From the NCBI GenBank assembly GCA_002170315.2, contig NHFA02000036.1:13042-46521 (forward strand): a stretch of 33,480 bases of DNA, read 5' to 3'. Positions 1,914 through 26,051 of this stretch are shown one piece after another. The first letter of the stretch is position 1. Every line of letters begins with the position of its first letter. A program made the position numbers and the translations under genes. The notes beneath the pieces are model-generated. The model had not been told where the DNA came from and did no database searches. It saw only the letters and a list, made by a program, of their open reading frames with translations. This DNA is from Euryarchaeota archaeon TMED99 (GTDB taxonomy: Archaea > Thermoplasmatota > Poseidoniia > Poseidoniales > Poseidoniaceae).

Positions 1914-2074
1914 TTTCCCACCTACCCTTGGCAATCGGTTCAAAGGGGTATATGTGTCTTCGCCGTGATGGGAGAGTAAAAAGGGCAGTTCTTCGACTCT
2001 TTTTCCGCCCCCATATGCTGTATTGAGGGTGTTTTGAGCAATGCTTTGAAGTGGGTGAAGGAGAGGACAGAACA

Positions 2075-2653
2075 ATGGCGAGGACGGTGAAGGCGACGAA
2101 GGCTGCCATTAAGGAAGCCAATACGCTTGTAGAGTCGTTACGTGAACTGGTTTGGACGGACTTAAAGTCTCAATATTCCGCGTTTGAAGAAATGCTTCGT
2201 GAAAGGATTCATGGAGCAGAAGAATCTATTGTTGAGGCATCGAAAGGTAAGGCGGCAATCGTTGCAGGTATTAGCGTCATGCGAAAAGACCTGGATAAAG
2301 CACAGCGACGTTTCTCGCGCTCCAATGATGTTGAAGAATTAAGGGCGTTTTTGGTCGAATTAGCCGAAACAATTCATCGCTTACGAGTTGCGAATAATGA
2401 TATTGTTGAATCGCTTCATATCGTCATCAATCCACACCTTTCTGCTATTGAAATAGTGGAAAAGTTTGCCTCCGACCTTCAGCGTTCTGCTGGAACTTGG
2501 GAGAGAAACGGTCGTCAAATCGATGAATCAATCCATGAATTATGCGATGATAATGAACCGGCTGAACTCACTGATTTGGAACATTATATTACAAAACAGG
2601 GATATGGTTCGTTGCTCGAGAAGCCGAGTCATTCTTCTTCCGAAGAAGATTGA
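2075..2653 (+). CDS. Hypothetical alpha-helical/coiled-coil protein
   Basis: ATG at 2075 after purine-rich GGAGAGG. Helical charged composition; no motif recognised. Confidence 0.7.
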   Translation: MARTVKATKAAIKEANTLVESLRELVWTDLKSQYSAFEEMLRERIHGAEESIVEASKGKAAIVAGISVMRKDLDKAQRRFSRSNDVEELRAFLVELAETIHRLRVANNDIVESLHIVINPHLSAIEIVEKFASDLQRSAGTWERNGRQIDESIHELCDDNEPAELTDLEHYITKQGYGSLLEKPSHSSSEED

Positions 2654-3816: not shown

Positions 3817-3894
3817 ATCACCTCGGCGAGGATGACTCCTCACATTACAAGGCCGGAGACTACGGGTTAAGAAGGACACCCCTGTGGGAGAAGT

Positions 3895-9056: not shown

Positions 9057-11060
9057 TCAGCCATGGCGGCCAAAGTGATGATCCAGTGAATCCAACGGAA
9101 GTCGTAATGCTGTAGGGCGGCCATGAACGCAAGCCCAAGGATTGGGAATTCTTCTCATATCATCGATTAATCTTCGCATTTCAGGTAAAGTCAATTTTTC
9201 ATTTGCCTTGACTGACCCTCGGCAGGCATTGAGGAATGCGAGGTGGTCTTTACGACGGTCAACGGTCTCTAAGGGGGCGCCATCCTCCGCAGTATCTTGT
9301 AAGAGGTCCATGAGGAACGGAACCAATTCTTGGCCATCAAGCAGGTGAGGAGCAGCATCAATCATCCAACCCTCTTCACTTTCTCGCACCGAAAAACCAA
9401 CTTCGCTTAAGGTGTCGACAGCAGCTGAAATTCGCGCAGATTGTCGGGCGTCGAGGTCTAATTTTACTGGCTCGATTTTTGTCTGGCTTTCCCATAATGA
9501 AGCATCATGGCGTAACCGTTCATATCGGATACGTTCATGGAGAGCATGTTGGTCAATCAGAAGTAATTCTCCCTCTGCTTGAACCAAAATATAGGAATCA
9601 GCAAATTGTGCTAATGGTTCCATTTCTGGGAGTTCATTGATGATGCCTTCGAGGGGCTTCTCTTCATTGGGCGAATGACGAATACCGCAGCCGGCATGCC
9701 GATGCAGTGTCCTTTCAGCAGGGGATAATGCAGGTGCAGTAGGTTTCTGATCTAATCCTGGAAGGGTCTCTTGTGCTTCAGGTGCTGTTGATTGTGGGCG
9801 CTTTTTTTCCACCGCTTCGGGTTCTTCCGCTTCTCTTCCGTGAAGATTCAGTTGCGCTCCAGCAGCAATGGCCCATGCAGGTGGTGCTTGTTGGGTGTCT
9901 TTTGGAAGCACAAGTGCTGAAGCACCTGCTGCAGCATCCAATGGGTCCAATGATGTTTTTTCAGCAGTAAGGTGTTCTTGAATGGATGTTGTTTTTTGGA
10001 TGCCAAGTCCTTGAAGTCCAGGAATACCTCCAGCAGCGTCAGGTTGTGTTGGAGCCGATTCAAGCGTATGAGCAATCGCTCTTTCGAGTCGTTCCAAAAC
10101 TCGCCATGAATGGCGGAGCCGCACTTCACGCTTGGTTGGATGAACATTCACGTCGACTTCTTCTGGAGGAAGGGTCAACGAAAGAACTGCAATGGGGTGC
10201 CTTCCTTGCATCAAACGTGTGCGGTAACCACGGCGAATGGCTTGAAGAAAAGGGCCAGCTGCAACGGGGCGACCGTTAATGAGAACATGGATATCGTCGC
10301 CTTTGCCACGGGTGATATCTGGCGTACTAATCCATCCACTCCAGCGCTCTTGACCCGGTGCATCAGCATCACTTTGTGGAGATTTTATCTCTAGCATTGA
10401 CTCGACTTGTCCACCCAGCAAGTCAAACAGCCTGTCCATCATTGATTCTGCAGGAGGGATGTCAAGCATGACCCGTTCATCGATGACCAGTCGGAATCCT
10501 ATGGATTGGTGAGCCATTGCGTGAGCAACAACAACATCAACGATACGCGCATTTTCAGTCGCTGGCCGGCGTTGGAATGCTAATCGAGCGGGAGTATTCT
10601 TGAATAAATGTTCAACATCGACCCGTGTACCTTTCTGCATGCCAAATGGTTCTACAGTGCCTTTTACGCCATTCTTCATAGCGATTGATTTACCTTCTTT
10701 TCCTTCTGGGCGGCTTGATATCGTGAGGTGCGAGACCATTCCGATGCTCGCTAATGCTTCTCCTCGGAAACCAAGAGTGTGAATTGAATTCAAATCCTCA
10801 GCCTTTTGCAATTTTGAAGTTGCATGTCGATCCAGCGAAAGTCGCAGGTCGTCCTCATCGATTCCACTTCCGTCGTCTTCGATACAGATGAGGTCAAAAC
10901 CACCTCGCTCAACGGTAATTACCAGACGCATTGAACCCGCATCAAGACTGTTTTCAAGCAGTTCTTTGACGACTTGAGCAGGCCGTTCGACAACCTCTCC
11001 AGCAGCGATATGCCCAATGGTGGTTTCATCCAATTGTAGAATCCTTTTTGGTTCAGACAT
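9057..11060 (-). CDS. mutL: DNA mismatch repair endonuclease MutL
   Basis: IAAGEVVERP, KELLENSLDAG, HATSK, GFRGEAL, DVNVHPTKREV; endonuclease motifs DQHALHERIRYE, ACR and CVHGRP. Confidence 0.98.
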   Translation of the reverse strand: MSEPKRILQLDETTIGHIAAGEVVERPAQVVKELLENSLDAGSMRLVITVERGGFDLICIEDDGSGIDEDDLRLSLDRHATSKLQKAEDLNSIHTLGFRGEALASIGMVSHLTISSRPEGKEGKSIAMKNGVKGTVEPFGMQKGTRVDVEHLFKNTPARLAFQRRPATENARIVDVVVAHAMAHQSIGFRLVIDERVMLDIPPAESMMDRLFDLLGGQVESMLEIKSPQSDADAPGQERWSGWISTPDITRGKGDDIHVLINGRPVAAGPFLQAIRRGYRTRLMQGRHPIAVLSLTLPPEEVDVNVHPTKREVRLRHSWRVLERLERAIAHTLESAPTQPDAAGGIPGLQGLGIQKTTSIQEHLTAEKTSLDPLDAAAGASALVLPKDTQQAPPAWAIAAGAQLNLHGREAEEPEAVEKKRPQSTAPEAQETLPGLDQKPTAPALSPAERTLHRHAGCGIRHSPNEEKPLEGIINELPEMEPLAQFADSYILVQAEGELLLIDQHALHERIRYERLRHDASLWESQTKIEPVKLDLDARQSARISAAVDTLSEVGFSVRESEEGWMIDAAPHLLDGQELVPFLMDLLQDTAEDGAPLETVDRRKDHLAFLNACRGSVKANEKLTLPEMRRLIDDMRRIPNPWACVHGRPTALRLPLDSLDHHFGRHG

Positions 11061-13707
11061 TCTTTTCGCCTCCGAGTAGTTTCTTTAGTCTATAGAGTGC
11101 GTCATGTGCTTGACGCGGTGAAAGTTCATCCGCATCGATGTCGGAAAGATATGCAAGCGTTTCTTTCTCTTCTTGACGAATGTTCGGTGCGGTTTGTTTT
11201 GCTCCGTTCTTCTGAGTAATCGCTGCGGCTGCAAAATATCCCATTAAACTCGATTGCCCTTGAGCACGTGCCGAAGGAGTTCCTGATTCACCTGCTTTTG
11301 CACCATGTGCTTGTTGTTCTAAGAATGCAAGAAGGTCGCTCGCTCGTTCGACAACTGGCCGAGGTAAGCCCGCTAAAGCAGCAACTTGAACACCGTATGA
11401 ATCATCACACGGACCATCAGCAACGGTGTGAAGGAAACGAAGTTCTCCGTCTGCTTGTGCGACTTGTACGTGGACGTTGACCAATCCATCGACCTCTCCT
11501 TCGAGGCCGATTAATTGATGATAATGTGTTGCGAATAATGTCCGTGCCCCAATTCTCTTACAGATGTCTTCAGTGACGGACCACGCGATAGATAATCCAT
11601 CAAATGTCGAAGTTCCACGGCCAATTTCATCAAGTAAAACGAGCGATTGTGGCGTAGCTCTTCGAAGAATATGAGCGACTTCAATCATCTCCATCATGAA
11701 TGTAGAACGCCCTCGGCGTAAGTCGTCACTTGCACCGACACGAGTAAAAATTCGATCGACCAGCCCAATTCTCGCTTTCTTCGCAGGAACAAAACTACCG
11801 GACTGGGCCAGGATTGTCAATAATGCCGTTGTCCGAAGGTAAGTCGATTTACCACCCATATTTGGTCCTGTGATTAAGAGGAAGTTTCTCTTCTTTTGCA
11901 ATTGAATATCATTTGGCACAAAGCCCGATTGCATTTCCAATGCAGGATGGCGGGCATCTTCGGCTTTGAGATGATGTCCTGCCGTTAACTCTGGACGAGT
12001 CCATGAACGTGTTCGAGCGATTGAAGCGAAGCATTGCAATACGTCGATTGCAGCAACTCTGCCTGCGATATTGGCGAGGAGTTGCGCGTGCATTCGACAA
12101 CGTTCTCTTAGCGAGGTAAATTCTCGATATTCCAATTCCTTGACCTTTGTATCAGCGGTTAAGAGAAGGTCGTCTCTTTCTGACAATTCATCGGTAATAT
12201 ATCGAGAACCATTGGTCATCTGTTGCTTCCGACGCCATTCTTCAGGAACTTTGGTTTCATGAGATTTTGTGACTTCAATAAACCATCCTATTTGGCGGTT
12301 CATTCGAACTTTCAGTGAAGGTATTTCCAGTTCTCGTCGTAACTTCGCTTCTAAGTCTTGGAACCAAGAATGCCCAGTTGCGGAAGTTTCTCGAAGTTCA
12401 TCGATGGTTGAATTGAGTCCTGCTCGAATTAAGTTTCCATCACGAATGCTGAGCGGAGGTTCATCGACCAGCGTACGGCGAATATCTTCTGCAAGGTCAC
12501 TCAAAGCATCTAATTCATGCGAGAGATGACCGAGGAGTGGATTTTCAGTTTCATTACAGAGATTGATGATTGCAGGCATCCGCTCTAAAGCATCCGAAAC
12601 AGCGAGCAAGTCTCGCCCATTTGACCGGTTATAGGCGAGTTGTGTTGCCAATCGTTCCATATCTCTCAGCCCACGTAGGGCTTCCCGTAGACCCTCAAGT
12701 CGACGAGCAGAACGAGCAAGTGAACCAACCGCTTCATGGCGTGCATGAATGGCTTCAAGATTGCACAGAGGGCGTAAAAGCCATGTTTTTAGCAATCGCC
12801 GTCCCATTGCACTTCGACATGCATTCATTGTCGAAAGTAGACTTCCTTCATATTCTCCTGCTAATGTTGAAGTTAATTCGAGGTTCTTCAATGTCGTTTG
12901 GTCAAGAACCAAATTTCCAGTTTCCTTGATGACTTCGATATCTCGAAGCGGTATTTCATCGGTGATGTGCATGGTTGCAAGGTAGTCGGCAGCAAGTCCT
13001 GCTGCAGCCAGTGCAATCGGCGAGTCATCTAAATCCAGATGACCTAAATCAGCGACTTTTAACACCTTTTCAAGACGGCTTCTGCGCCTTTTTTCACTCG
13101 CTCGGTGTTGGCTGATGAGAACATTGTCAAGATGGGAAAAAAGAGCGCATAGTTCAGTATCTTCTGCATCTTTAGGCGAGACGACAATTTCTGTTGGCCG
13201 CCATCTCATGATTTCATCTAACGCTCGAGCAAAGCGGTCATCCCCGTTCAAGTCAGAAGCCCATGCTTGACCCGTAGATGCATCGACAATTCCGACTCCT
13301 AGCGTTGACTTATCGAGTACGACTGAAACCAAAAGGGAACGTTCATCTGTTCCAAGTAACGATTCTTCATACAAACTTCCAGGTGTGTAAACTCTTGTCA
13401 CCATACGTTCCAAGATCTTCGCACCTTCTCGTAGTTCTTGCTCTTGTTCTGCTACAGTGACTTTGTATCCTGCTTTCAGCATACCTCGAATGTTGTCTTC
13501 CAATGCATGCCAAGGGAATCCAGCCATTTGAATCGGTTTATCTGCCTTCTTGTCTCGAGATGTAAGAGCCAATCCGAGGATTTCAGAACCCACTTCCGCA
13601 TCCTCGTGGAATAATTCATAGAAGTCGCCCATCCTGAAGAAAAGGATCGTATCAGGGTGTTCCTTTTTGATGTCCATGAATTGGTCCATCATCCCCCTTT
13701 TTGCCAT
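11053..13707 (-). CDS. mutS: DNA mismatch repair protein MutS (MutS1)
   Basis: FFRMGDFYELF, TGPNMGGKSTY, STFMMEM, DEIGRGT, FATHYH, SYGVQVA. Start MAKRGMMDQF; overlaps the mutL start. Confidence 0.98.
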   Translation of the reverse strand: MAKRGMMDQFMDIKKEHPDTILFFRMGDFYELFHEDAEVGSEILGLALTSRDKKADKPIQMAGFPWHALEDNIRGMLKAGYKVTVAEQEQELREGAKILERMVTRVYTPGSLYEESLLGTDERSLLVSVVLDKSTLGVGIVDASTGQAWASDLNGDDRFARALDEIMRWRPTEIVVSPKDAEDTELCALFSHLDNVLISQHRASEKRRRSRLEKVLKVADLGHLDLDDSPIALAAAGLAADYLATMHITDEIPLRDIEVIKETGNLVLDQTTLKNLELTSTLAGEYEGSLLSTMNACRSAMGRRLLKTWLLRPLCNLEAIHARHEAVGSLARSARRLEGLREALRGLRDMERLATQLAYNRSNGRDLLAVSDALERMPAIINLCNETENPLLGHLSHELDALSDLAEDIRRTLVDEPPLSIRDGNLIRAGLNSTIDELRETSATGHSWFQDLEAKLRRELEIPSLKVRMNRQIGWFIEVTKSHETKVPEEWRRKQQMTNGSRYITDELSERDDLLLTADTKVKELEYREFTSLRERCRMHAQLLANIAGRVAAIDVLQCFASIARTRSWTRPELTAGHHLKAEDARHPALEMQSGFVPNDIQLQKKRNFLLITGPNMGGKSTYLRTTALLTILAQSGSFVPAKKARIGLVDRIFTRVGASDDLRRGRSTFMMEMIEVAHILRRATPQSLVLLDEIGRGTSTFDGLSIAWSVTEDICKRIGARTLFATHYHQLIGLEGEVDGLVNVHVQVAQADGELRFLHTVADGPCDDSYGVQVAALAGLPRPVVERASDLLAFLEQQAHGAKAGESGTPSARAQGQSSLMGYFAAAAITQKNGAKQTAPNIRQEEKETLAYLSDIDADELSPRQAHDALYRLKKLLGGEKNV

Positions 13708-13815
13708 GCTCAATACTCTCCTTGCTCTCGCTGGAGTCCTATGTCGTTGCCGAGAGCACATGAAGGTTCTCGCGTAGCCTAGAAAGAACTCCAGTTTTCA
13801 CGGGAATTTTGTATT

Positions 13816-15066
13816 TTATTGATTCTGCCGCATTCGACTAAAAGCCGTCCACACCATGACGCCCATCACAATACTTGAGGCAGTAAAGAAGAGGAAATTC
13901 AAGAAACCTCTTCCACTCTCTATAGAACCGATTGCTAGGGTGTCGATTGAATAGGTTCCCGTCTCACCATTTTGATTATTACCGTGAGCATAGATGACAT
14001 CATCGGAAACTCCGGATACTTCGACGGTCAGCGGAAGTGGTCGTGCTAAAGGCATCTTCTCTGGAATTCCTTCTCTCATCCGAACAATCGATGTGCTGCC
14101 TTCACTTCCGAACATCCAAACAGCGCCTTTTTCATCAAGTGCAACAGATTCACTGGAGACTTCAACATCGGTCATTGTTCCATCCAGAGCAATATGAACT
14201 GCAGAGTCGGTGCCTGCAGCAAGAAGACTACCATTTTCAAGTTTAATCAGAGAGTGAATTTCACCTCTCTCAAGCTCTTCAATCGATGTGAGCATTGGGG
14301 CAGTAGGTCCTGCGGACCATGAAATGAAACCTATCACGGGGTGTTTGAGCGGTGCAGCAGGGCTGTTTTCATCGGCACCAAATGTATTGGCCATCAAACC
14401 TGTTGCAATCCATGTACCGTCGTCCAGAGCCTCAACCATATTCCATTCGAAGTCGTCGGAATTCACCATTGCAGCGGTTACAGTTGCACCTCCAAATGCG
14501 GCTTGAGCAGGTTGGAGTGGTGTAGCAACATTTCCAAAGCCTCTGAGGCTTGAAGTGTTTCCTTCATCCGTAGCCATGAGCCAATGGTAGCCATCGCCGT
14601 TGGCTTGTTCAGCAACATCGAGAATATCGAAGGATTCTTGATTCTCGTTGAGTGGGACAATGGTGCGCTGTAAATTTTCAGATTTCACGTGGATGACTTC
14701 CAATGTATTGTTTGAGGGCGATACGACGATACTTCCGTCATGAAGTTGTGTCATGAAGGTCATTCCCAAGATATCTTCGTAATCTGCACCTATGTCTCTA
14801 GCGTCACCTTGATCATCGTAGTGGAACATCACTCCACCTTCATCTCCCAAGACCATTGCAGTGTAACTGCCTGAGTCTCCATACACGATATCCAATACCC
14901 GCCCATCAACGGCTTCGAGTCCATCGCTGCGGTAGTCGACGCCAGGGAGGGAAGAAGTTCCTTGAATCGCGATTGCTCCGAGGAGAATAAATACAAAAAA
15001 GCCAGAAATAGCGACCCATTGGTGTTCAGATTCTTCTTCAAGAAGCCCTCTCCATCCCTTCGCCAT
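13816..15066 (-). CDS. Hypothetical membrane protein with N- and C-terminal TM helices and an acidic beta-rich (propeller-like) middle domain
   Basis: Hydrophobic segments WVAISGFFVFILLGAIAI and FLFFTASSIVMGVMVW. Probable start MAKGWRG at 15066. Confidence 0.7.
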   Translation of the reverse strand: MAKGWRGLLEEESEHQWVAISGFFVFILLGAIAIQGTSSLPGVDYRSDGLEAVDGRVLDIVYGDSGSYTAMVLGDEGGVMFHYDDQGDARDIGADYEDILGMTFMTQLHDGSIVVSPSNNTLEVIHVKSENLQRTIVPLNENQESFDILDVAEQANGDGYHWLMATDEGNTSSLRGFGNVATPLQPAQAAFGGATVTAAMVNSDDFEWNMVEALDDGTWIATGLMANTFGADENSPAAPLKHPVIGFISWSAGPTAPMLTSIEELERGEIHSLIKLENGSLLAAGTDSAVHIALDGTMTDVEVSSESVALDEKGAVWMFGSEGSTSIVRMREGIPEKMPLARPLPLTVEVSGVSDDVIYAHGNNQNGETGTYSIDTLAIGSIESGRGFLNFLFFTASSIVMGVMVWTAFSRMRQNQ

Positions 15067-15215
15067 ATTTGCAGGATGAGAAACGGGCACATGAAACCTT
15101 TTATCGAATCTGTAGTGATGTTTCATTTCCTCATTTTGGAAAATCTTGCGGCAAGGCTTGAGGCGGAGAGATGATAAAGGGAATATCGGTCGCAAGACTG
15201 CTTGGAGAGAGTATC

Positions 15216-15957: not shown

Positions 15958-17730
15958 ATGAGAGTTGCTATCCTTGACCAAGAACGCTGTAAGCCAAACA
16001 GTAACGCCTTTAATTATCTGCAAAAGTATGCTGGTGCGTGTGGCAGTGAATGTATTCAGGCGACTGAAGAAGAATGTAAAATCTTAGAATCTGCATGCCC
16101 ACCTTGCCTTATTCGAGCGAAACTCTGTCCTGATGATGCGGTGAAAATCATCAATCTCCCAGAAGAACTTGATACCGATATGATTCACCGTTTTTCACTC
16201 AATGGTTTCCGTCTTTTCCGTCTCCCAGCACCAAGAAAACGCCAGGTAGTTGGAATACTTGGTCCGAACGGAATCGGTAAATCTACTGCCATCAAACTCC
16301 TTTCAGGTTCATTACGTCCAAACCTCGGTGATTGGGAAAGCACTCCACCTGATTGGGATGAGATTATCTCGATGTTCCCAAGAGGTGAGTTGCGAGATTA
16401 CCTTGGCTTGGTTTCCCAAGGTGAAGTGACTATTTCAACCAAACCTCAACACATTGACAAGTTACCGAAAGTGTTTGATGGTGAGGTGCGTGGACTTCTT
16501 TCACGCGTCGACGACCGAAATGAACTCGAAACTTTTGCCAGCGAACTAGGAATTACACACATCTTAGGTCGAAAACTTGGAGATTTATCGGGTGGTGAAT
16601 TACAGAGAGTCGCCATTTGTGCAACCTTGCTCAAAGAAGCAGATGTTTACTTCTTTGATGAACCTTCATCGTATCTTGATATTTATGAACGAATGAGGAT
16701 GGTTCTCATTCTTCAAGCGTTGGCTGAAAGAGGTAAGCGTGTTCTCGTGGTCGAACACGATTTGGCAATTCTTGATGTTCTTTGTGACTTGGTACACATC
16801 GTTTATGGAGATAAGGGCGGATATGGAATTTTCACTCCTTCTCGATCGACCCGTACAGCGGTGAATGCTTACCTCGATGGCTTCTTAGTCGAAGAAAATG
16901 TTCGTATTCGTGACAAGCCAATTCGTTTCTTGAAGCACTATGAACGGGTGAGTGAGCAAGGTAATGCCGTTCTGGAATGGGGTGATTTGGAAAAGAAACT
17001 CGGAGATTTCACCCTCACAACTGGCAAAGGTGCAGTTCATCGTTCAGAGGTTGTTGGCGTGGTTGGTCCTAACGCAACAGGTAAATCGACAATGATTAAA
17101 ATTCTCGCTGGAGAGATGGATTACGATGCTGGATGGGTATCTGATGGCGCCTCAATCTCATACAAACCTCAGCACATCACTGCAGATTTTGATGGAAGCG
17201 TTCAACTCTGGCTCGATACTGAAATTGGGCCGAAATGGCGTTCTGGTGAATTCAATGTCACAGTCATACGTGCACTTGGCGTCGATAAATTACTTCCAAA
17301 GAGAGTAAAGAAACTCTCCGGTGGTGAACGTCAAGCAGTTGCTCTAGCTATTTGTTTGGGTCGAGAAGCCGATTTGTATCTTTTTGATGAACCGTCTGCT
17401 CATTTGGATGCAAATGCTCGAATGGTTGCTGCTAAAGCTATCCGTAAAACGATGGAAATTAATGAGAAGTCCGCATTTGTAATTGATCACGATGTCTATT
17501 TTATCGATATTGTGAGTGACTCTTTACTTGTGTTTGAGGGCGAAGGTGCAGTTCATGGTTCTGCCAAAGGCCCATTCCGTCTTCGTGAAGGAATGAACCG
17601 CTTCCTTCAAAGTGTCAATATTACATTTCGGCGAGATCATGATTCAAAGCGCCCTCGAATCAATAAACCCGAGAGCCGTAAAGACAGAGAACAGAGGTCA
17701 GATGGTGACTTCTATTCATTCGAAAATTGA
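15958..17730 (+). CDS. rli: Ribosome recycling ATPase ABCE1/RLI1 with atypical N-terminal Cys domain
   Basis: IINLPEEL, FRLFRLP, GPNGIGKST, LSGGELQR, DEPSSYLD, second NBD GPNATGKST/LSGGERQ, hinge ITFRRD..RPRINK. Confidence 0.97.
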   Translation: MRVAILDQERCKPNSNAFNYLQKYAGACGSECIQATEEECKILESACPPCLIRAKLCPDDAVKIINLPEELDTDMIHRFSLNGFRLFRLPAPRKRQVVGILGPNGIGKSTAIKLLSGSLRPNLGDWESTPPDWDEIISMFPRGELRDYLGLVSQGEVTISTKPQHIDKLPKVFDGEVRGLLSRVDDRNELETFASELGITHILGRKLGDLSGGELQRVAICATLLKEADVYFFDEPSSYLDIYERMRMVLILQALAERGKRVLVVEHDLAILDVLCDLVHIVYGDKGGYGIFTPSRSTRTAVNAYLDGFLVEENVRIRDKPIRFLKHYERVSEQGNAVLEWGDLEKKLGDFTLTTGKGAVHRSEVVGVVGPNATGKSTMIKILAGEMDYDAGWVSDGASISYKPQHITADFDGSVQLWLDTEIGPKWRSGEFNVTVIRALGVDKLLPKRVKKLSGGERQAVALAICLGREADLYLFDEPSAHLDANARMVAAKAIRKTMEINEKSAFVIDHDVYFIDIVSDSLLVFEGEGAVHGSAKGPFRLREGMNRFLQSVNITFRRDHDSKRPRINKPESRKDREQRSDGDFYSFEN

Positions 17731-17744
17731 GGTGTGATGAGAAA

Positions 17745-19511
17745 ATGCCAGTAGGAATGCCGCCACTTGGAGGTCCATTAGGACGTTCACGATCACGTAT
17801 TTCTGCCAGTGGACTCACCACTTTTCTTCGGTGCAAGCGGCAATGGTTTCTTGGCTCTAAAGTTGGAATTTCAGGACCCTTGAGACCTTCTCAAGTCATT
17901 GGTATTGTGCTTGAAGACGCTCTTTGTGGATTGATGATGCAGCGGCCTGAAAAAGAGTTTCAAACTTTTTCTGAATTGAAAGAATGGATGTTGAATTTGA
18001 TTCCAAAAGCGGCTCAAGAAGCTCTAGCGGCGGGAGAAGTTCTCTGGGATGAAGGTCTTTGGTATGCGCCTGAGACATCTTGGGATGATGTCGAAATTGA
18101 ATCGTTTGAGACTCGTCTTGAAAATGGCTTGATGTTATTGTTTGAAGAGGTTGAGGCCTGCTATGAAGCGAATGGAGGTCCTTATTTGGATTTGATGAGG
18201 GCAAATGAATCCCCCTTTGAAGTTCCATCACCTGCTTGGGGCGATGAACCTCGTTTCCCCGTACCCGACAAAGTTCGTAATCATGAATTACGTTCTTGGG
18301 CGATTCCAGAACAAGCGATGATTTGGAAAAAATCAGGAACTCCTGTTTCATGGAACGAGGCTCTTGAAATCGCCCGACCTTGGACCAAAGACCCTCGAGT
18401 ACATCAACCTCAACGATTGTTTCATCCTGAGCGATGGGCTGCAGGAGAACTGGACTTGGTGCTACGATGGGATGGTCGAATTCGAATTGTCGATATCAAA
18501 TCCGGTGACCCGAGTTCTCGGTTTGCTGAATCGCTCCAGCACCAACTTCGATTCTATGCATGGCTTTGGCATGAGACGCATGAGGGTGAATGCATCGACG
18601 GATTAGAAGGATGGTACCTCAACGGTCCTCATCGTGTTCTGTATGATGCACCTCGTCCAGATGAATATGGAGAAATGACGAATGAATTTTTCCAAGTTAA
18701 TTCTGAAATGCAAAGCATGGGGTCAGGTCCTGCGGCTATGCCGGTTCTACCCGAAGATGCGTGTGATGGGAGTGCAGCAGGATGCCATTGGTGCAGCCTT
18801 GCTCGCGATGAGGATGGGCAGTGGTTTGGAGATGAACTCCTTTCAAACATCACTCCAAGTCGCGAAATTTCTCTAACGGTCCCAAGTGAACCCTTGTCAA
18901 ATATACCTGTTCGAGTGAGTGTTCAAGGGAAGTTTACCGGTGCATGGGGCCCGTTGCCAAATCATTTCGGTGAGCCGGTTCTTGGCGCAATGTTGGTTGC
19001 CGGTGGTGTTCAAATTACCGTCGAAGAGAGTGAGCCTGGAAGTTATCCACTTCTTCATGATCAAGAAAATGGAGAACTGGTGATACTTGACGCTCTCCCT
19101 GGCGTATGGCGGGGTGCTCCTCGATTGTATGTGGATTCAAGAACACGTATCGTGCCAATTGCACAAGCGAATAAAGAATTTGAGCAAACTGATACGCCGC
19201 TCTCTCAAAGAATGACGCGTATTGGTTTACTTCGCACCAGGGCGAATGTGGAAGGGATCGTTCTTAGCGTTCGAAAGCGTTCAGGAGTGCGATTGGATGC
19301 CAAACCTTGGACCATGTTAAACGTCCATCTTTGGGATGGGCATTCGGTGGTTGAAGTTGCTTCGTTCGGCTCGAGTATCACTGGACAAATGGAATCATTA
19401 CGGCCGGGTCAAACGCTGAAGTTACTGGCCGCTGAAATAGGTTGGAGAGCAGGACTGCCCCAACTTCGAATCGATACGAGAAAAACACGTCTGCAAATCA
19501 AAGATTCGTAA
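17745..19511 (+). CDS. Cas4/AddB-like PD-(D/E)XK nuclease fused to two OB folds (paralog A)
   Basis: ISASGLTTFLRCKRQW, GELDLV-x8-IVDIKSG, QLRFYA, C-x6-CHWC. C-terminal RPA-like OB fold (NVEGIVLSV...LWDGHSVVEV.FG...LRPGQTLKL). ATG at 17745 after GAGGTG. Confidence 0.85.
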   Translation: MPVGMPPLGGPLGRSRSRISASGLTTFLRCKRQWFLGSKVGISGPLRPSQVIGIVLEDALCGLMMQRPEKEFQTFSELKEWMLNLIPKAAQEALAAGEVLWDEGLWYAPETSWDDVEIESFETRLENGLMLLFEEVEACYEANGGPYLDLMRANESPFEVPSPAWGDEPRFPVPDKVRNHELRSWAIPEQAMIWKKSGTPVSWNEALEIARPWTKDPRVHQPQRLFHPERWAAGELDLVLRWDGRIRIVDIKSGDPSSRFAESLQHQLRFYAWLWHETHEGECIDGLEGWYLNGPHRVLYDAPRPDEYGEMTNEFFQVNSEMQSMGSGPAAMPVLPEDACDGSAAGCHWCSLARDEDGQWFGDELLSNITPSREISLTVPSEPLSNIPVRVSVQGKFTGAWGPLPNHFGEPVLGAMLVAGGVQITVEESEPGSYPLLHDQENGELVILDALPGVWRGAPRLYVDSRTRIVPIAQANKEFEQTDTPLSQRMTRIGLLRTRANVEGIVLSVRKRSGVRLDAKPWTMLNVHLWDGHSVVEVASFGSSITGQMESLRPGQTLKLLAAEIGWRAGLPQLRIDTRKTRLQIKDS

Positions 19512-19554
19512 TTTGAGAGCAGGGTTCAAGAACATTCGGCAATATCTCGCTGAT

Positions 19555-21381
19555 ATGCCGGTAAGACTCGCAACTCCTTCTGAAGATTCTGTCGGGCCAT
19601 ATAATCGACTTTCAGCAAGTCAGGTGAACACCTACCGTTCTTGTCCTCGTCTATGGTTTTATGAGAAAGTCCGGCGTTTTAAAATGCCACAAATACCGGT
19701 CTTATTTGTTGGCAGAGCGGTCGAAGAAGCAGTTTGTCGAATGCTTATGGAGTCGCCAGCCCTTCTGGTTGCCAATGCTTCATCAGACACGCTTTCAGCA
19801 ATACCTCTTGATGACAGTGGGATTCCAAGCCGCTCGAGCCTTGAGCCATGGCCAGCAGAGCGTTTACTCGCTCTCCCAGAAAACATGTGGCCTACAGATG
19901 TGGAGAGTTTACGTCATTGGGGTATTGGTCGATTGAAAAAGCATCTCCATCTCGCACTTAATGCCATGAAAGCTGAATGGGAAAAGGATGAACGTAAAGC
20001 AGGCCAATGGAGTTCTGTCGACCCCGATTACTGTCTTCAGATGTGTGTAAATGCATTGGATTTCCACTTGAAAGAAGTACAACGCTGCCTTGAGCAGAAT
20101 GGCGGGCCGAATCTCAAAGAATGGAGACGAGGCAAGCGTCCTGACTGGCCTTCACCCGATGCTCGTCGCTATACTCTTTCCAACAATCATCCTCTTTCAC
20201 AGAATGGAGAAGTTTCATTGGTCGAGGCTTGGGAAATTGCTCGACCTTGGTTTGTTGATCCAAATGCTGCCAAGTTTGCAATGAATGCAGTTCACCCAGA
20301 ACATTGGTTCCAAGGTGAGTATGATTTAGTCTATCGTTGGGATGGACGTATCAATATTGTTGATCTGAAAGCCAGCGTTGGAAAAGGTGACCGTTCGGGT
20401 AACTATGTTCAACAACTTCGCATGTATGCAATGCTTTGGTGGATTACACATGAAAAGAAAGAAATTGTGGATGCTCTCGAAATTTGGTATCTTGGTGCGA
20501 ATTCCATCAAATCAATCCCCTGTCCTACCGTTGAAGATATGACGGAAATGGAATCGGAACTTGAATCGTTATGGCACGAACTTCGAGAAACGACACCATC
20601 GATAGAAGAATGCCCGCCATCGCCCGCTCCAGTCCGAGGCTATGAGGCAGGTGGAGTCGCTATAGAACCGCCGAATGAGTCGAGATGTGAGCGCTGTGAT
20701 TGGAAACAAATTTGCCCAGGTGGAGAAGGAGATGACATCCTTCCTGAAGGGGGTTCAGTTCAATTACCGGGGAGTTCAACTTCATTTGATCTTACACCGA
20801 TAGGCGACCTCGACCCTCGAATGACGTTGATTGGTGAAGTATTCAGCGTGCTGAATGCGAGAGAAGGCCGGCGCCCTCAGATTACCATTTCTCAAGGTAA
20901 TGCGTTTGCCAAAGTTATACTGTTGGTTGACAATCACCAAGACGGACAGCCTTCTTGGCCAGAATCCATATCGAAAGGAGATATGGTCCGGCTCGATAAC
21001 GTCATTCCAAGTGCAAATTGGAAAGGAGAGATTGAACTTAAAGTCGACCCGCATGCGTGTATTGTTCCTGCTTCGGATGGTGAAATTGCATCCGATTTAA
21101 TGGAGTTCCGCGCTCGTTGGAACGTCTCAGGTCGCCTCATTTATCGGTTTGAAAAGAGAGGTGTTGGTCGGAACGGCAAAGAATGGCATCGGAAGGGTGC
21201 AATGATTCAAGATGCAAGTGGTGCAATGAAGGTTGACGGATGGGCAAATGATTGGGGCCCTCAGTATGACTTAGCAGAAATTGGTGATACCGTTGTTGTT
21301 GCCAACATTGGCTTGGATGCTTGGGCAGTTGAGGTTCGTGGAAGCGTTTCTCGAAATACGAAGTTCCACATTTTGAAGTGA
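19555..21381 (+). CDS. Cas4/AddB-like PD-(D/E)XK nuclease fused to two OB folds (paralog B)
   Basis: LSASQVNTYRSCPRLW, GEYDLV...IVDLKAS, QLRMYA, CERCDWKQIC (CxxC-x5-C). Two OB-like domains (IGDLDPRMTLIGEV...KGDMVRL; WNVSGRL...IQDASGAMKVDGW...IGDTVVV). Confidence 0.88.
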   Translation: MPVRLATPSEDSVGPYNRLSASQVNTYRSCPRLWFYEKVRRFKMPQIPVLFVGRAVEEAVCRMLMESPALLVANASSDTLSAIPLDDSGIPSRSSLEPWPAERLLALPENMWPTDVESLRHWGIGRLKKHLHLALNAMKAEWEKDERKAGQWSSVDPDYCLQMCVNALDFHLKEVQRCLEQNGGPNLKEWRRGKRPDWPSPDARRYTLSNNHPLSQNGEVSLVEAWEIARPWFVDPNAAKFAMNAVHPEHWFQGEYDLVYRWDGRINIVDLKASVGKGDRSGNYVQQLRMYAMLWWITHEKKEIVDALEIWYLGANSIKSIPCPTVEDMTEMESELESLWHELRETTPSIEECPPSPAPVRGYEAGGVAIEPPNESRCERCDWKQICPGGEGDDILPEGGSVQLPGSSTSFDLTPIGDLDPRMTLIGEVFSVLNAREGRRPQITISQGNAFAKVILLVDNHQDGQPSWPESISKGDMVRLDNVIPSANWKGEIELKVDPHACIVPASDGEIASDLMEFRARWNVSGRLIYRFEKRGVGRNGKEWHRKGAMIQDASGAMKVDGWANDWGPQYDLAEIGDTVVVANIGLDAWAVEVRGSVSRNTKFHILK

Positions 21382-21392
21382 ATTCATCAGGA

Positions 21393-21593
21393 TTAACCGC
21401 CTGAAGATATTGTGGTCACCAAGAGTTCGACGGGTTGAGAAAGAACAGTAGCATGGGGTAAAATCACGCCATCATGGCTCACGATGACCATCGAAGGTGG
21501 AATTTCAGCCTTTGTGAGAGCTTGTCGAACAGTCACTCCACTTTCGAGGTCTATCTTGACATCATAGTCTCGTCCTTTGAGGTGTATCTCCAT
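21393..21593 (-). CDS. Ubiquitin-like sulfur carrier / SAMP (MoaD/ThiS family), 66 aa
   Basis: MEIHLKG...TVRQAL...VIVSHDG...ISSGG*; beta-grasp pattern with C-terminal GG. GGAG precedes the ATG at 21593. Confidence 0.9.
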   Translation of the reverse strand: MEIHLKGRDYDVKIDLESGVTVRQALTKAEIPPSMVIVSHDGVILPHATVLSQPVELLVTTISSGG

Positions 21594-21648: not shown

Positions 21649-21731
21649 GCCGAGATCGCATAGCCCGGTATTGCGGTGGATTCGAAATCCACTGTCCTTG
21701 TGACGCGGGAGTTCAAATCTCTCTCTCGGCG
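21649..21731 (+). tRNA. tRNA-Ser (anticodon CGA)
   Basis: Acceptor stem GCCGAGA/TCTCGGC with discriminator G. Anticodon arm GTGGA-TTCGAAA-TCCAC (CGA at 21683-21685), long variable arm, T arm GGGAG-TTCAAAT-CTCTC. No intron; CCA not fully encoded. Confidence 0.96.
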
Positions 21732-21786
21732 CCTAACCCCAATCCAAGGCTTTTTTATCGATTGGCATTATCATTGACCGATTGAC

Positions 21787-22257: not shown

Positions 22258-23013
22258 TCACATGTAAAAGGCATCGGGTGACTCGGTTAATTCTCCAACG
22301 AGGTCATCGACTTTACCTGGCGCTAATGCAGAGAGCTTTTCAGTTAACTTCGACTGAATGTCACTTGGTAAAGCGATACCAAGTTCAAACCATCCATCTA
22401 AACTCTCCAGTAATCTTTGGGATACAAACACATCTCCGCTTGAACCTACAGTGGTTGCAATTGCACAAGCGCTTTGGATGTTGAACAGAGGTCCATTGGA
22501 AGCGATCAATGCTGCAAGTCCGATTGCTCCAGATTTCGGCTCATCACGTCGAACATCAACGCCTGCTGCTTCTAAATCAATCCGATGTGCTGCACTTGAA
22601 GCGACGACAAAGACTTCTTTTCGAGTTGGAGCATCCATCAATCCAGCAAGAACGTAGAGCGAAGAGACGCCTTGGCTTTCTAGCCATTGAAGAATTTCTC
22701 TCGCCATCATCCCCTGATGTTCAGGTTCCAAAGGCTGTGAAGTTCCTGTGAGGCAAATAACCCTCTTTCCAGTAACAGATTCTATAGAGGAAAGAGTGAG
22801 GTGCGGTGGTGCGAGCAAGCCATCTTCGTCAAGGGTTGCAAGAGGAGGTAATGCTGTGTGATGTAAACGAGCCACTTCGTTACAAAGATGAGATGAATTG
22901 ATGCCTTCAATGGCAACCTTGCCCACGTTTCCGACCCCTGGGAGTGCAAAGAACATGATGTCATGTTCACCGACTTGAGTATTCGACCCTCTCCATTCAA
23001 TGTGCAATCCCAT
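22258..23013 (-). CDS. PAC2-family proteasome assembly chaperone
   Basis: ALPGVGNVGKVA, GTSQP, LYVLAG, GAIGLAAL; conserved position after nop10. Confidence 0.88.
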   Translation of the reverse strand: MGLHIEWRGSNTQVGEHDIMFFALPGVGNVGKVAIEGINSSHLCNEVARLHHTALPPLATLDEDGLLAPPHLTLSSIESVTGKRVICLTGTSQPLEPEHQGMMAREILQWLESQGVSSLYVLAGLMDAPTRKEVFVVASSAAHRIDLEAAGVDVRRDEPKSGAIGLAALIASNGPLFNIQSACAIATTVGSSGDVFVSQRLLESLDGWFELGIALPSDIQSKLTEKLSALAPGKVDDLVGELTESPDAFYM

Positions 23014-23101
23014 AATGTTCCTATCGATTTAGGACGCGCTATAATGTTTCACATTCGAATCACGCTGAAAAGCGGAATTGTGAAGGCTCGAATGAAACGC
23101 A

Positions 23102-23344
23102 TCATTCTTCTTCAGAAGCATCGTGCGTGTTTTTCATTTCTTCCAAAGAGGGAAGTGTAGCAAGCCCACTGGCCCATTTTGCGTCAGTCACATTGTACAT
23201 TTTACGTCGAATCTCAGCACGATGGTCCTCAGGTGACCATTTGAGAGGTGCTGCTGCTTGTGCCTTGGATCCGCATGAAGGACATGTGGTCGCTAAAGTC
23301 CACGCTCCACATTCAAGACATTGCTGTAAAAGTTGTCGCGCCAT
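23102..23344 (-). CDS. nop10: H/ACA RNP protein Nop10
   Basis: CLECGAWTL..CPSCG...PLKWSPED...RR; follows aIF2alpha. Confidence 0.93.
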   Translation of the reverse strand: MARQLLQQCLECGAWTLATTCPSCGSKAQAAAPLKWSPEDHRAEIRRKMYNVTDAKWASGLATLPSLEEMKNTHDASEEE

Positions 23345-23382
23345 ACTACCACCGTTACGATTCAAGTTTATCAGTCGAGCCC

Positions 23383-24168
23383 TCATTCACGGTATGATGT
23401 GGCTTCTCCACCTGCTGAAAGAACATGGTCAAGAGTTGATTTTGTTGCGTTTTCCCAAATCGATTCAGCCGTTTTGAAATCGGGTGCTTTCAATTCAATT
23501 CGATATTCTGGTGCGCCATTATAGTGGCAACGGACTTCGATTTCTTCTTCTTCGGAAGAGAATGCTTCAGCGGCAAGAAGTGCATTTTGAATAATTTCTA
23601 CTCCGTTGATATCGTTAATACTCAAGGTTAGGATGCCTCGTATTTCGACAAAGTCTGGAATAATATTTTCTACAGCGATTTCAATGAAATGCTTCAGCCA
23701 ATCGCCTTCAAATCCTGCATCAACCAATGAACCTTCATTCATTGCAGCTTCTTCAAATGCAGTGTAAAGGCCGCCGTAGGCGTCGATCAGTTCTTGTTTC
23801 GAAGATTCAATATCCTCTTCGGTCCATCCTACCTTTTCTCCCAACACTTTCAGTAATTGGTTTGCACGTTGCTCATTTTTCCATTCTTGGAGCCGTTCAC
23901 GACGTCGCTCTTCAGAAACTGATTTCAGAGAAAGTTCCAGAGAAGTCCCGTCTTTGCGGGTTCGCATCACTTTACAGATGAGTCGCTGACCTTCTCGAAC
24001 ATAGACTCGAATATTCTTGACCCAGCCGCTGGCAATCTCGCCAATGAAAATAAAACCTTCAAGGCCTTCAAATTCATCGAGTTTGACATAACATCCGTTT
24101 TGTTTTACGGTTGTTACAGAAACAACAACAAGTTCGCCTTCACTTGGCGTATTGGTGATTTCTGACAT
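23383..24168 (-). CDS. eif2a: Translation initiation factor 2 alpha subunit
   Basis: PSEGELVV, EGFIFIGEIASGWVKNIR, LSLKSV, EWKNEQRA, GAPEYRI. Confidence 0.97.
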   Translation of the reverse strand: MSEITNTPSEGELVVVSVTTVKQNGCYVKLDEFEGLEGFIFIGEIASGWVKNIRVYVREGQRLICKVMRTRKDGTSLELSLKSVSEERRRERLQEWKNEQRANQLLKVLGEKVGWTEEDIESSKQELIDAYGGLYTAFEEAAMNEGSLVDAGFEGDWLKHFIEIAVENIIPDFVEIRGILTLSINDINGVEIIQNALLAAEAFSSEEEEIEVRCHYNGAPEYRIELKAPDFKTAESIWENATKSTLDHVLSAGGEATSYRE

Positions 24169-24183
24169 AGAGGCTCTGCCTCC

Positions 24184-24354
24184 TCATTCAAGTGCTTCAA
24201 CAACGGTGCATCCGATAAGATTCGCTTTACCACCAGATGGGATGGAAAGGGTTGCTCCGCAAACACCGCAAGAAATGACAGATGTTGCTCGAGAATAAAT
24301 GGTTGCTTCACTGCCGCAATCTTTGCAGGTGACTTTGAGGAAATTCTTTGCCAT
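24184..24354 (-). CDS. rps27e: 30S ribosomal protein S27e (56 aa; not in ORF track)
   Basis: Hand translation: MAKNFLKVTCKDCGSEATIYSRATSVISCGVCGATLSIPSGGKANLIGCTVVEALE. Confidence 0.96.
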   Translation of the reverse strand: MAKNFLKVTCKDCGSEATIYSRATSVISCGVCGATLSIPSGGKANLIGCTVVEALE

Positions 24355-24366
24355 ATTTTATTCAAC

Positions 24367-24651
24367 TCACTTATCGATTAATTCGAACTTCTTAGAACGA
24401 CGGCAAGGTGCATAGTGCGCTTTGCCAGTTTCCGTACAACGGTAGAGAATGTTTACTCGCTTTGTAGGCTTTTCACGGCCATCTGGTTTTGGACGAGGGA
24501 AACCACGGTAACCAGCCATAACACGGCGGAAACGGCGTTGACCCCAGCGAAGTTCAGAAGCACGCTTCTTCTTCACTCGCTCAATAGTGTGCATTGTGTG
24601 CTTGCCAGCCGATGGGCTGTAACGCTTGACTTGACGTGGCATTTTCACCAT
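24367..24651 (-). CDS. rpl44e: 50S ribosomal protein L44e (eL42)
   Basis: MKMP-like start, ELRWGQRRFRR, GYRGFPRP, EKPTKR; sits upstream of S27e. Confidence 0.96.
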   Translation of the reverse strand: MVKMPRQVKRYSPSAGKHTMHTIERVKKKRASELRWGQRRFRRVMAGYRGFPRPKPDGREKPTKRVNILYRCTETGKAHYAPCRRSKKFELIDK

Positions 24652-24783
24652 AAGAGCACCTTGAGCATTCGGCCCACAAGAGTCGGCTATTTAGGCGTGT
24701 CGCATTCAAACTCCATGGCAATTCGCTAGACTGCGAGTAAAACAGGGGGAGAGATAATGAACATTCAAGGCTTCCATTACGCC

Positions 24784-25578
24784 ATGGACGAGATGCTACA
24801 AGCGTTGCTTCTGTTCTGGATACCTATCGCTATGGTGCCTTTAGGTCTCTGGTTGTCGATGTCTTCTGCATCGAAATCAACCACAGCCTACGGAAAATAT
24901 CTTGCCTTTCTCGGCATCATTATGATTTGCCTAAGTCCGTGGACTGTTCCCTCCTCACCATCCTCCGCCGCCGGTCACTTACTCGGCGCAATTATTGGCC
25001 CGTGCATGCTGATTATTATCGGAATTTATCTCATTTCATTTTCTGGCAATGTTCCTGTTGGCAAATTACCACGAAGCGATCGAAGATTGGGTGTGCTGAT
25101 GAGTGGAGCTGGTTTTGTTTGGTTAGCAGGAATGCATTGGTGGATTCTAACTCCTCAACTTTCTCCAGATGAAGTCAATCCTTACTGGTATGTCTTCTGG
25201 CCAACATTCATTTTGCTCACTTCGTGTTTAGCATCATGCTCTGCAGTGACTTTGTTGACCATTGGTGACCGGCGTAGAACAGAGTCAAATGCAATGTTTG
25301 TTGTCTCTGGCCTGTCAATGGCGATATTACTCCTGGGGCTCAATATTGATGGCCCCTTGGTACAAGCAGATGAATTCCGCGAGCATCTGTGGTTAGCGGT
25401 TGCAGATATGGCAGGTATCGCTGTAGGCAGTCTCCTCTCGATACTTGTTTTTGCCTTTGTCATTTACTCTTATGAGCGCAGCCTGCCGTCACCCAAAGCG
25501 ATCGAACCGCCAACTTCGTCTGAACTTGACCAAGTCTCAACACTTCTACAGGCTCATCTTGGAGGTGAAGAAGAATGA
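24784..25578 (+). CDS. Hypothetical multi-pass membrane protein (~7 TM)
   Basis: Series of hydrophobic segments. Start could be 24757 or 24784. Confidence 0.75.
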   Translation: MDEMLQALLLFWIPIAMVPLGLWLSMSSASKSTTAYGKYLAFLGIIMICLSPWTVPSSPSSAAGHLLGAIIGPCMLIIIGIYLISFSGNVPVGKLPRSDRRLGVLMSGAGFVWLAGMHWWILTPQLSPDEVNPYWYVFWPTFILLTSCLASCSAVTLLTIGDRRRTESNAMFVVSGLSMAILLLGLNIDGPLVQADEFREHLWLAVADMAGIAVGSLLSILVFAFVIYSYERSLPSPKAIEPPTSSELDQVSTLLQAHLGGEEE

Positions 25579-26051
25579 AAGAATCTTCTTTATCGATGAC
25601 ATGGAGAATGATTCTCTTGGCATTTTTACTTCCCCCATTGCTTATTGTTGCTTTGGATATTACGTTCTATGGTGCATTTAATGGCGTTGATTCAAGCGTT
25701 TCATTTACTCGCTTTGCCAATGCGACTTTGACTGCTTATACTCTCTGTTCTCTGTTTTTACTCGGCAATTTGTTTTTCTACGGCGAATCGAGAAACAGAC
25801 CTTTGGCGCCTTTGGTTGGCATGGTAGTTGCGACACTTTTGGGGATAGTGGCGACTGCATTTTTCATTGGCCAAGGTCCTATGCTCTTGGAAGACAACGG
25901 TTCTGTCCAAGCTCAAGGAATATACAACATCGTTCACATGTTCGTCTCATCGGGTGCAATTCTGATGGCCGTTTGCGTCGCTTTAGGGGTCACATTTTCA
26001 GCAATAACTTCCCAGAAACTTCGGAGCGATTTTGATTTAGAAGAAGAATAA
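25575..26051 (+). CDS. Hypothetical membrane protein (~4 TM)
   Basis: ATGA overlap with the previous gene and upstream GGAGGTGA; four hydrophobic segments. Confidence 0.75.
   Translation: MKESSLSMTWRMILLAFLLPPLLIVALDITFYGAFNGVDSSVSFTRFANATLTAYTLCSLFLLGNLFFYGESRNRPLAPLVGMVVATLLGIVATAFFIGQGPMLLEDNGSVQAQGIYNIVHMFVSSGAILMAVCVALGVTFSAITSQKLRSDFDLEEE

Follow-up and report, generated by a model that had tools for sequence, protein, structure and literature searches.

A tandem pair of Cas4/Dna2-class nucleases with predicted RPA-like OB folds in archaea of the Poseidoniales

In a 33,480-nt stretch of the genome of Euryarchaeota archaeon TMED99, a member of the Poseidoniaceae (contig NHFA02000036.1, positions 13,042 to 46,521 of the forward strand; "the window" below means this whole stretch), we found two adjacent, co-oriented genes, A and B, each encoding a Cas4/AddB/Dna2-class nuclease followed by what appear to be two OB folds of the RPA type. 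This architecture had been proposed from the letters alone in an earlier, sequence-only reading, and its occurrence twice in tandem is borne out by matches to PF12705, by a structure model of B and by PF01336 matches in relatives. Judging from their sequences, A and B represent two anciently diverged paralogues of one enzyme specific to the Poseidoniales, an order that named records equate with Candidatus Poseidoniales and Marine Group II (MGII). What we establish below is the architecture of the pair, the integrity of its catalytic and cluster residues, its phyletic distribution, the order of the genes and the course of their duplication. From the analogy with Dna2 we infer, as the probable though by no means assured function, a housekeeping nuclease that does without a helicase and acts on ends or flaps of single-stranded DNA (ssDNA).

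The longest open reading frames (ORFs), counted from the first possible start, run from 17727 to 19511 (594 aa, TTG start) and from 19513 to 21381 (622 aa), and all residue numbers given for A and B are those of these longer ORFs. Because homologues begin at positions corresponding to residue 7 of the A ORF and residue 15 of the B ORF, the real starts are taken to be the ATG codons at 17745 (A) and 19555 (B), the former being the one already chosen in the sequence-only reading; both proteins then begin with Met-Pro-Val. A GAGGTG motif sits 9 nt 5' of the ATG of A, the stop codon of the preceding ABCE1 gene lies 14 nt 5' of the same ATG, and 43 nt separate the stop of A from the start of B. The paralogy of the two genes is supported by a BLASTP alignment that runs end to end and reaches A residue 591 (25% identity, E 2e-37). 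In this alignment we find every one of the motifs listed beforehand, i.e. SAS..C.R, NGGP.L, PSP, EA.EIARPW..DP, HPE.W..GE.DLV.RWDGRI.IVD.K and QLR.YA.LW. In four RNA libraries, each from a different study, there are short contigs that match stretches of ABCE1, A and B at identities of at least 92%. This is compatible with transcription of A and B, DNA carry-over being possible; in these four libraries, no contig bridges the ABCE1/A or the A/B junction with at least 31 letters on each side.

The sole Pfam match in either protein is PF12705 (PDDEXK_1), with 9.3e-14 and 52.4 bits for A and 3.6e-18 and 66.8 bits for B at a gathering cut-off of 22 bits. The same family is matched by all 15 A-type and all 24 B-type members, and no helicase family of Pfam is matched by A or B. 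The catalytic residues of A are D243, D256, K258, Q273 and Y277, accompanied by cysteines 36, 346, 353 and 356; the motif residues of B are E71, D271, D284, K286, Q301 and Y305, with cysteines 44, 392, 395 and 401 in a C-Xn-CxxCx5C arrangement. We counted conservation over 75 non-redundant rows, comprising 18 A-type, 27 B-type and 26 apparently single sequences together with four bacterial cousins (see below). In the numbering of B, D271, D284, K286, Q301, Y305, C44, C392 and C395 are identical in 75/75 rows, so the D...DxK and QxxxY motifs are intact in both proteins just as the sequence-only reading had stated. The motif-I Glu (E71) is identical in all 71 archaeal rows and is a Gln in all four cousin rows. 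The fourth cysteine (C401) is found in 57/57 B-type, single-copy and cousin rows and in 10/18 A-type rows; the other eight A-type rows, that of the window among them, carry a replacement cysteine a few residues upstream of the CxxC, and the ligand pattern thus appears to be permuted in part of the A clade. Since the catalytic and cysteine residues are conserved, both paralogues look catalytically competent and cluster-bearing.

Each paralogue contains a helical insertion of roughly 150-180 residues. The nuclease domain of A, modelled alone (369 aa), reached a pLDDT of 87.7 and a pTM of 0.88. Its top Foldseek matches are the Dna2 structures 5eax_A, 5ean_A and 5eaw_A (E 5e-5 to 1.4e-4), the best of them being 5eax_A with 5.3e-5 over 330 columns of the 369 residues. 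AdnA (6ppu_A, 1.1e-4) is the second-best system, and ACE1, MGME1, Cas4, AddA and RecB are further matches; the sole RNA enzyme matched is Rai1, with an E of 1.2. Searching the sequences of A and B against solved structures gave chance-level matches only (E of at least 0.1).

For the C-terminal half we rely mainly on the full-length AlphaFold model of B, for which an alignment of 72 family members served as input (mean pLDDT 91.5, pTM 0.87). The model has an N-terminal part of mixed alpha/beta type followed by two modules rich in beta structure, and its pTM suggests that these domains are held in a defined arrangement. Compared with the PDB, it yields 103 matches at E <= 1e-3. In Foldseek the C-terminal half is matched best by RPA70 DBD-A/B (4gop_C with 1.4e-8, 1jmc_A with 2.6e-8); HIN-200 domains, Teb1 AB and Pyrococcus abyssi RPA are other top matches, and all of the best ones are tandem OB modules. 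Among the relatives, PF01336 is matched by 12/24 B-type and 11/15 A-type members, and where the matches can be placed (the B orthologues G002 and G027) they fall on OB fold 2. Residues 536-620 of B also show a weak match to PRK07218, an archaeal SSB model of NCBIfam (E 0.19; 10.7 bits, the cut-off being 447). The two C-terminal OB folds postulated for these proteins are hence confirmed for B by the structure model, and PF01336 in relatives adds support at the level of sequence. The coordinates of all these features are collected in Table 1.

Table 1. Positions of the A-B pair, its predicted domains and the upstream ABCE1 gene within the window
Feature	Position	Strand	Basis
Gene A, upstream paralogue, nuclease and two predicted OB folds, 588 aa	17745..19511	+	ORF and homologue starts
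A nuclease domain, Cas4/Dna2-class PD-(D/E)XK with helical insertion	17745..18851	+	PF12705, model, Foldseek
C-terminal part of A corresponding to the OB pair of B, approximate limits at residues 394-480 and 500-592	18906..19502	+	Alignment to B
Gene B, downstream paralogue, nuclease and two predicted OB folds, 608 aa	19555..21381	+	ORF and conserved MPV start of homologues
B nuclease domain, residues 15-405 of the 622-aa ORF	19555..20727	+	PF12705, invariant columns, model
B predicted OB fold 1, residues 437-519	20821..21069	+	Beta module in model, tandem-OB matches
B predicted OB fold 2, residues 536-620	21118..21372	+	Model, PF01336 in orthologues, weak PRK07218
ABCE1/RLI-type twin-ABC ATPase gene, directly upstream of A	15958..17730	+	Pfam ABC_tran 3.3e-38

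The genome from which the window comes (1.8 Mb, 85% complete) contains just two copies of the family, A and B. With B as the query, the family was matched in 148 of 151 Poseidoniales genomes (58/58 of the high-quality ones and all 22 genera) and in none of the 230 genomes of the phylum outside the order, 0/8 of the sister family in the same class included. Here and below, an absence means that the given query found nothing in the genomes examined, a set with many incomplete metagenome-assembled genomes. A sample of 301 genomes of the phylum gave 70 positives, every one of them from one of two Poseidoniales families, and when 1.84 billion cluster representatives were searched exhaustively with HMMER, A as the query returned only 145 proteins at E <= 1e-3, mostly fragments. 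The scope of MGII and MGIII envisaged in the sequence-only reading therefore holds for its first half: the family was found in MGII only, and the eight sister-family genomes of the same class gave no match.

Seven genera of Thalassarchaeaceae with small genomes (1.3-1.6 Mb) have one family gene only, and an A-family profile revealed no second copy in five single-copy genomes. To trace the history of the family, we calculated a maximum-likelihood tree from the 75 rows, with the root placed on the bacterial cousins; it comes from a quick search, has several long branches and leaves the basal order of B poorly settled. In this tree the 18 upstream (A) copies are all united in a single clade (support 100), whose stem is long (2.45 changes per column). 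Of the 26 "single" rows, 24 group as a single clade within the B copies of their own family (support 98), and the remaining two are loci cut by a contig end. Identical family groupings recur inside A and inside B. As A and B repeat the same family groupings, the tree points to a single old duplication before the sampled Poseidoniales diversified. After the duplication A has apparently evolved fast and been lost once, in one small-genome lineage, and B never. Since this clade of Thalassarchaeaceae keeps B alone, B is evidently able to work without A.

In all three families of Poseidoniales we observed the same gene order, namely ABCE1, A and B, then on the opposite strand a small gene, PAC2, Nop10, aIF2-alpha and L44e. 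The linkage of the two paralogues also holds in relatives, with A preceding B in 20/20 loci from other genomes that hold both. ABCE1 is found immediately 5' of A in all ten non-window loci that extend upstream (L022-L030; all three families), at a spacing of about 30 nt or less. The single-copy gene of the Thalassarchaeaceae still adjoins PAC2 and aIF2-alpha, and ABCE1 is not upstream of it. In Poseidoniaceae, L10e as well as bacterial-type MutS and MutL are located further upstream of ABCE1-A-B. Because the pair is near-universal in the order, keeps a fixed ABCE1-A-B position and shows shared family groupings in both subtrees, we regard A and B as vertically inherited housekeeping genes of genome maintenance, not of defence.

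We further asked which other repair genes accompany the pair. NurA was found in 0/41 Poseidoniales genomes (the controls match in 7/14 genomes, including all four control archaea). Among five Poseidoniales genomes, the Rad50 zinc hook, Cas1 and, over its cut-off, Pfam Dna2 (PF08696) were found in none, and Fen1 and a separate RPA-like gene in all. The phyletic setting to which the sequence-only reading had pointed is therefore one in which the family is near-universal in Poseidoniales, NurA is not found and RPA-like and Fen1 genes are present. A UvrD-type helicase within an AddA-like ORF of about 1650 aa is encoded in 5/5 Poseidoniales genomes tested. In the genome of the window, contig C38 (locus L034, 3011-11880, minus strand) carries a gene for an AddB-like protein of 1299 aa with a PD-(D/E)XK domain directly before that for an AddA-like protein of 1656 aa, the latter combining a UvrD helicase (PF00580), UvrD_C and a PD-(D/E)XK domain. 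By its domains, this pair is a candidate bacterial-type AddAB/AdnAB-like helicase-nuclease in an archaeon and a candidate break-resection machine. PF01935 (HerA) matches 25/41 genomes but also all 14 controls and is hence uninformative; in the family to which the window belongs it falls on DUF87/HerA-like ORFs some 790-900 aa long (837 aa in the genus of the window), with no NurA found there.

The significant structural neighbours of both halves are all DNA enzymes or DNA binders. Following them, each protein would be a metal-dependent PD-(D/E)XK nuclease whose domain is held together by a four-cysteine iron-sulfur cluster, and the tandem OB pair of RPA70 DBD-A/B type would grip ssDNA and keep it in a set orientation towards the nuclease domain. 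A free ssDNA end or flap would be fed into the active site and then cut, amounting to a Dna2-like action without a helicase motor and with an RPA-like module built in. Alongside Fen1, RPA and the AddAB-like machine, A and B would process long flaps, gaps or tails during replication and repair. The two may cooperate, each cutting one type of end or one strand, with B able to work alone. The ssDNA substrate, the cleavage, its polarity, the pathway and any A-B complex all belong to this proposed part of the picture. A complex prediction for B 15-622 with A 7-375 (A without its OB folds) gave ipSAE values of 0.11 and 0.04, the mark being 0.32, which we count neither for nor against binding. The conserved adjacency and the two intact active sites favour an A-B complex, and the B-only clade indicates that it is not obligatory; indeed, an obligate heterodimer is doubtful because one clade of Thalassarchaeaceae keeps B only. 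A bolder version, which we think rather unlikely, would have A and B form, after the ancient duplication, a heterodimer of helicase-less Dna2 counterparts whose two active sites deal with RPA-coated flaps and gaps of the replication fork in opposite polarities or on opposite strands, the streamlined Thalassarchaeaceae having reverted to B alone. If true, it would constitute a previously unrecognised route by which archaea without Dna2 and NurA-HerA process long single-strand intermediates.

Several points weigh against the Dna2-like reading. The role is assigned by analogy, and the helicase half that defines Dna2 is absent. The substrate, the polarity and even the choice of DNA over RNA are read from structural neighbours of predicted models. 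PF01336 is unmatched in either protein of the window at E<=5, OB fold 1 is without any sequence-family match, and the OB folds of A are deduced from the alignment to B and from PF01336 in relatives. Furthermore, PF01336 OB folds are also known from RNA binding (tRNA anticodons), and double-stranded DNA is a ligand of HIN domains. Finally, the tight packing of ABCE1, A and B and their translation-related neighbours would suit an RNA role equally well.

Such a role would make A and B RNA-directed nucleases tied to translation, with an ABCE1-A-B operon that degrades mRNA or rRNA from stalled or recycled ribosomes. Besides the short distance to ABCE1 (within about 30 nt in 10/10 loci; 14 nt, with GAGGTG, in the window) and the neighbours L10e, PAC2, Nop10, aIF2-alpha and L44e, it is favoured by the fact that some PD-(D/E)XK enzymes act on RNA and that the PF01336 family includes RNA-binding anticodon domains. 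However, the significant structural neighbours are all of DNA type, with Rai1 at an E of just 1.2, and the single-copy lineages have no adjacent ABCE1; as the single-copy gene does not lie beside it, the ABCE1 link is dispensable. The translation-type neighbourhood is also no evidence against a DNA role, because the L44E-S27E-aIF2alpha-Nop10 cluster usually adjoins replication genes in archaea, PCNA, PriS and Gins15 being named as its usual neighbours in a passage of Berthon et al. (2008, PMC2643942). For A and B this cluster is only a weak lead to replication, since they are convergent to it and belong to a different operon. We consider the RNA-directed role decidedly unlikely. The proposal of an obligate A-B heterodimer that resects double-strand breaks, i.e. 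a helicase-less analogue of AddAB/AdnAB which replaces NurA-HerA and Mre11-Rad50 and assigns one strand to each subunit, we regard as unlikely. It gains from the intact active sites of both paralogues, as in AddAB and AdnAB, from the adjacency with A first in 20/20 other-genome loci holding both, from AdnA as a top structural neighbour, and from the absence of NurA (0/41 genomes) and the Rad50 zinc hook (0/5). Yet an AddB-like and AddA-like pair is encoded elsewhere in the same genome, and its helicase subunit in 5/5 relatives, so that A-B is not required as the replacement for a missing resection machine. Moreover, 24 single-copy genes are nested in B (support 98) with no second copy in five genomes, from which B would function without A, and the pair has no motor for unwinding duplex DNA. 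Thus the part of the sequence-only reading that saw a locus without helicase stands, but the helicase-less end resection it suggested meets a genome equipped with an AddAB-like helicase-nuclease.

A third possibility is that of a solo-Cas4-like nuclease pair for antiviral or anti-plasmid defence, which was also raised in the sequence-only reading. There are weak matches to Cas4 and DruK, and the structural neighbours include ACE1, a protein of the Cas4 family that partners Argonaute; the abstract of a phylogenomic study of Cas4 (PMC5704561) suggests that solo-Cas4 in small genomes has as yet uncharacterised roles in defence or repair. By contrast, defence genes are typically patchy and mobile, whereas this family is near-universal, confined to a single locus at a fixed chromosomal position among housekeeping genes, and shows the same tree groupings in both paralogues, as expected of vertical inheritance. 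No defence genes are found near A-B, Cas1 is found in 0/5 genomes, and the matches to defence models, including those of PADLOC, are short and limited to a nuclease core of 50-130 residues. The window likewise contains no helicase domain, Cas1 or repeat array and no tandem repeats, which agrees with the locus free of helicase and CRISPR parts that had been described at the outset. A defence role is therefore very improbable.

Returning to the Dna2-like reading, we compared A and B with known systems. Dna2 combines an Fe-S nuclease with OB-type ssDNA binding and is functionally tied to RPA. A and B share with it the PD-(D/E)XK nuclease fold and the predicted Fe-S cluster, and Dna2 is the best structural match of the A nuclease domain; they differ in lacking the SF1B helicase half, in their C-terminal, tandem and RPA70-like OB folds and in the tandem duplication of their genes. 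With AddAB/AdnAB (3u44, 6ppu, 7sjr) they have in common the Fe-S nuclease domains of RecB/Cas4 class and the side-by-side arrangement of two paralogues with both active sites, but A and B are without helicase or helicase-like domains and measure 600 aa as compared with 1100-1300 aa. Cas4, solo-Cas4 and ACE1 show the same motif set (D, DxK, QxxxY), the C-Xn-CxxCx5C pattern found in B, and structural matches. Compared with Cas4, however, A and B are three times longer, carry the large insertion and two OB folds, and are not accompanied by cas1, cas2 or an array. The scores in the Cas4 family TIGR00372 stay under the cut-off of 65 bits (A 14.7 and B 27.9 bits), and PF01930, also Cas4, is matched by only 2/24 B-type members (best E 0.0043). 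The OB pair of RPA70 DBD-A/B and archaeal RPA (1jmc, 4gop, 8aaj) is matched by the C-terminal half of B with E 1.4e-8 to 5.7e-7; unlike in RPA and SSB, it is fused to an enzyme instead of being free-standing, and sequence identity is only 11-15%. Database annotations of family members are generic (hypothetical protein, PD-(D/E)XK nuclease family protein, Cas4), and a literature search, mostly at the level of titles and abstracts, found no published account of a Cas4/Dna2-class nuclease with an RPA70-like OB pair. The main text of the Cas4 phylogenomics paper (2017, PMC5704561) has a section on PF12705 proteins without any mention of an OB fold; its supplementary trees and tables might include the family. 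In these names and in this literature, the claim that no characterised protein has such an architecture met no counterexample.

Relatives outside the archaea form a rare, uncharacterised bacterial cousin family of about 440 aa, which we traced from three weak matches to 23 proteins and five genome loci (L035-L039). Three of the loci are labelled Planctomycetota/Planctomycetia/Singulisphaera, one "uncultured proteobacterium" and one "uncultured bacterium"; one of the 23 proteins is labelled Planctomycetes. Aligned with hhalign to the B family profile, the cousins reach a probability of 100 and an E of 1.7e-55 over 419 columns that cover nuclease, insertion and OB fold 1. They have the same nuclease, the helical insertion with the RPW motif, the four cysteines and OB fold 1, but in contrast to A and B they end after OB fold 1, lack OB fold 2, are encoded by a single gene and not in tandem, and have Gln for the motif-I Glu. 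Their gene neighbours are uninformative. Because the cousin shares nuclease, insertion and OB fold 1 and then ends, the core of a nuclease and one OB fold is probably older than the archaeal family or was exchanged with it; OB fold 2 and the tandem duplication appear to be archaeal additions. Given the cousins with Planctomycetota labels, one may ask whether genes have passed between these bacteria and MGII archaea. Among viruses, no relative of the family was found in the viral contigs of IMG/VR, and the BFVD matches of the B model are generic viral RecB/Cas4-like nucleases and the baculovirus protein LEF-3. An unnamed viral protein of 609 aa (BFVD A0A3Q9JJK9) aligns with the B model over 502 columns (E 1.1e-5, TM 0.28) and, by this model comparison, might share the nuclease-plus-OB layout.

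Some further features of the window surround the pair. Upstream, on the minus strand, the genes for MutL (9057-11060) and MutS (11053-13761) overlap by 8 nt, and both are kept upstream in other Poseidoniaceae genera. Just downstream of B, a small gene on the minus strand (21393-21593) encodes a protein whose last 66 residues end in Gly-Gly and show a weak, sub-threshold match to ThiS (E 0.006). The protein is a candidate small modifier of the ubiquitin-like type, and the gene for PAC2, a family named for a proteasome assembly chaperone, is close by; the shorter start of the small gene is likelier because the listed 107-aa ORF overlaps a tRNA gene. That gene, for tRNA-Ser (anticodon CGA; 21649-21733, plus strand), lies between the ThiS-like gene and one for a TM2-domain protein. 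From 22258 to 24651 follow, on the minus strand, L44e, aIF2-alpha, Nop10 and PAC2/COG2047, with an S27e-sized gap between L44e and aIF2-alpha. An ORF of 648 aa at 129-2075 (minus strand) has the DNA-binding SAP motif as its sole Pfam match (E 1.9e-5), and no family match was obtained for the ORFs 2051-2653, 2629-3879, 13816-15195 and 24757-26051.

MGII are among the most abundant planktonic archaea. To our knowledge they have no cultured representative, so their replication and repair biology is known only from genomes. Taken together, the architecture and the evolutionary pattern of A and B are solid and specific to this abundant uncultured lineage; the function is what we infer. Being nearly universal in Poseidoniales and not found elsewhere in the phylum, the A-B pair represents a component of genome maintenance peculiar to this lineage. 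With its own RPA-type module, such a nuclease would serve as a compact model, provided by nature, for the targeting of Dna2-class enzymes to ssDNA, and the duplication followed by the later loss of A offers a natural experiment on the paired and the single use of a nuclease. In a lineage where NurA, the Rad50 hook and Dna2 were not found, the pair would fill a gap.

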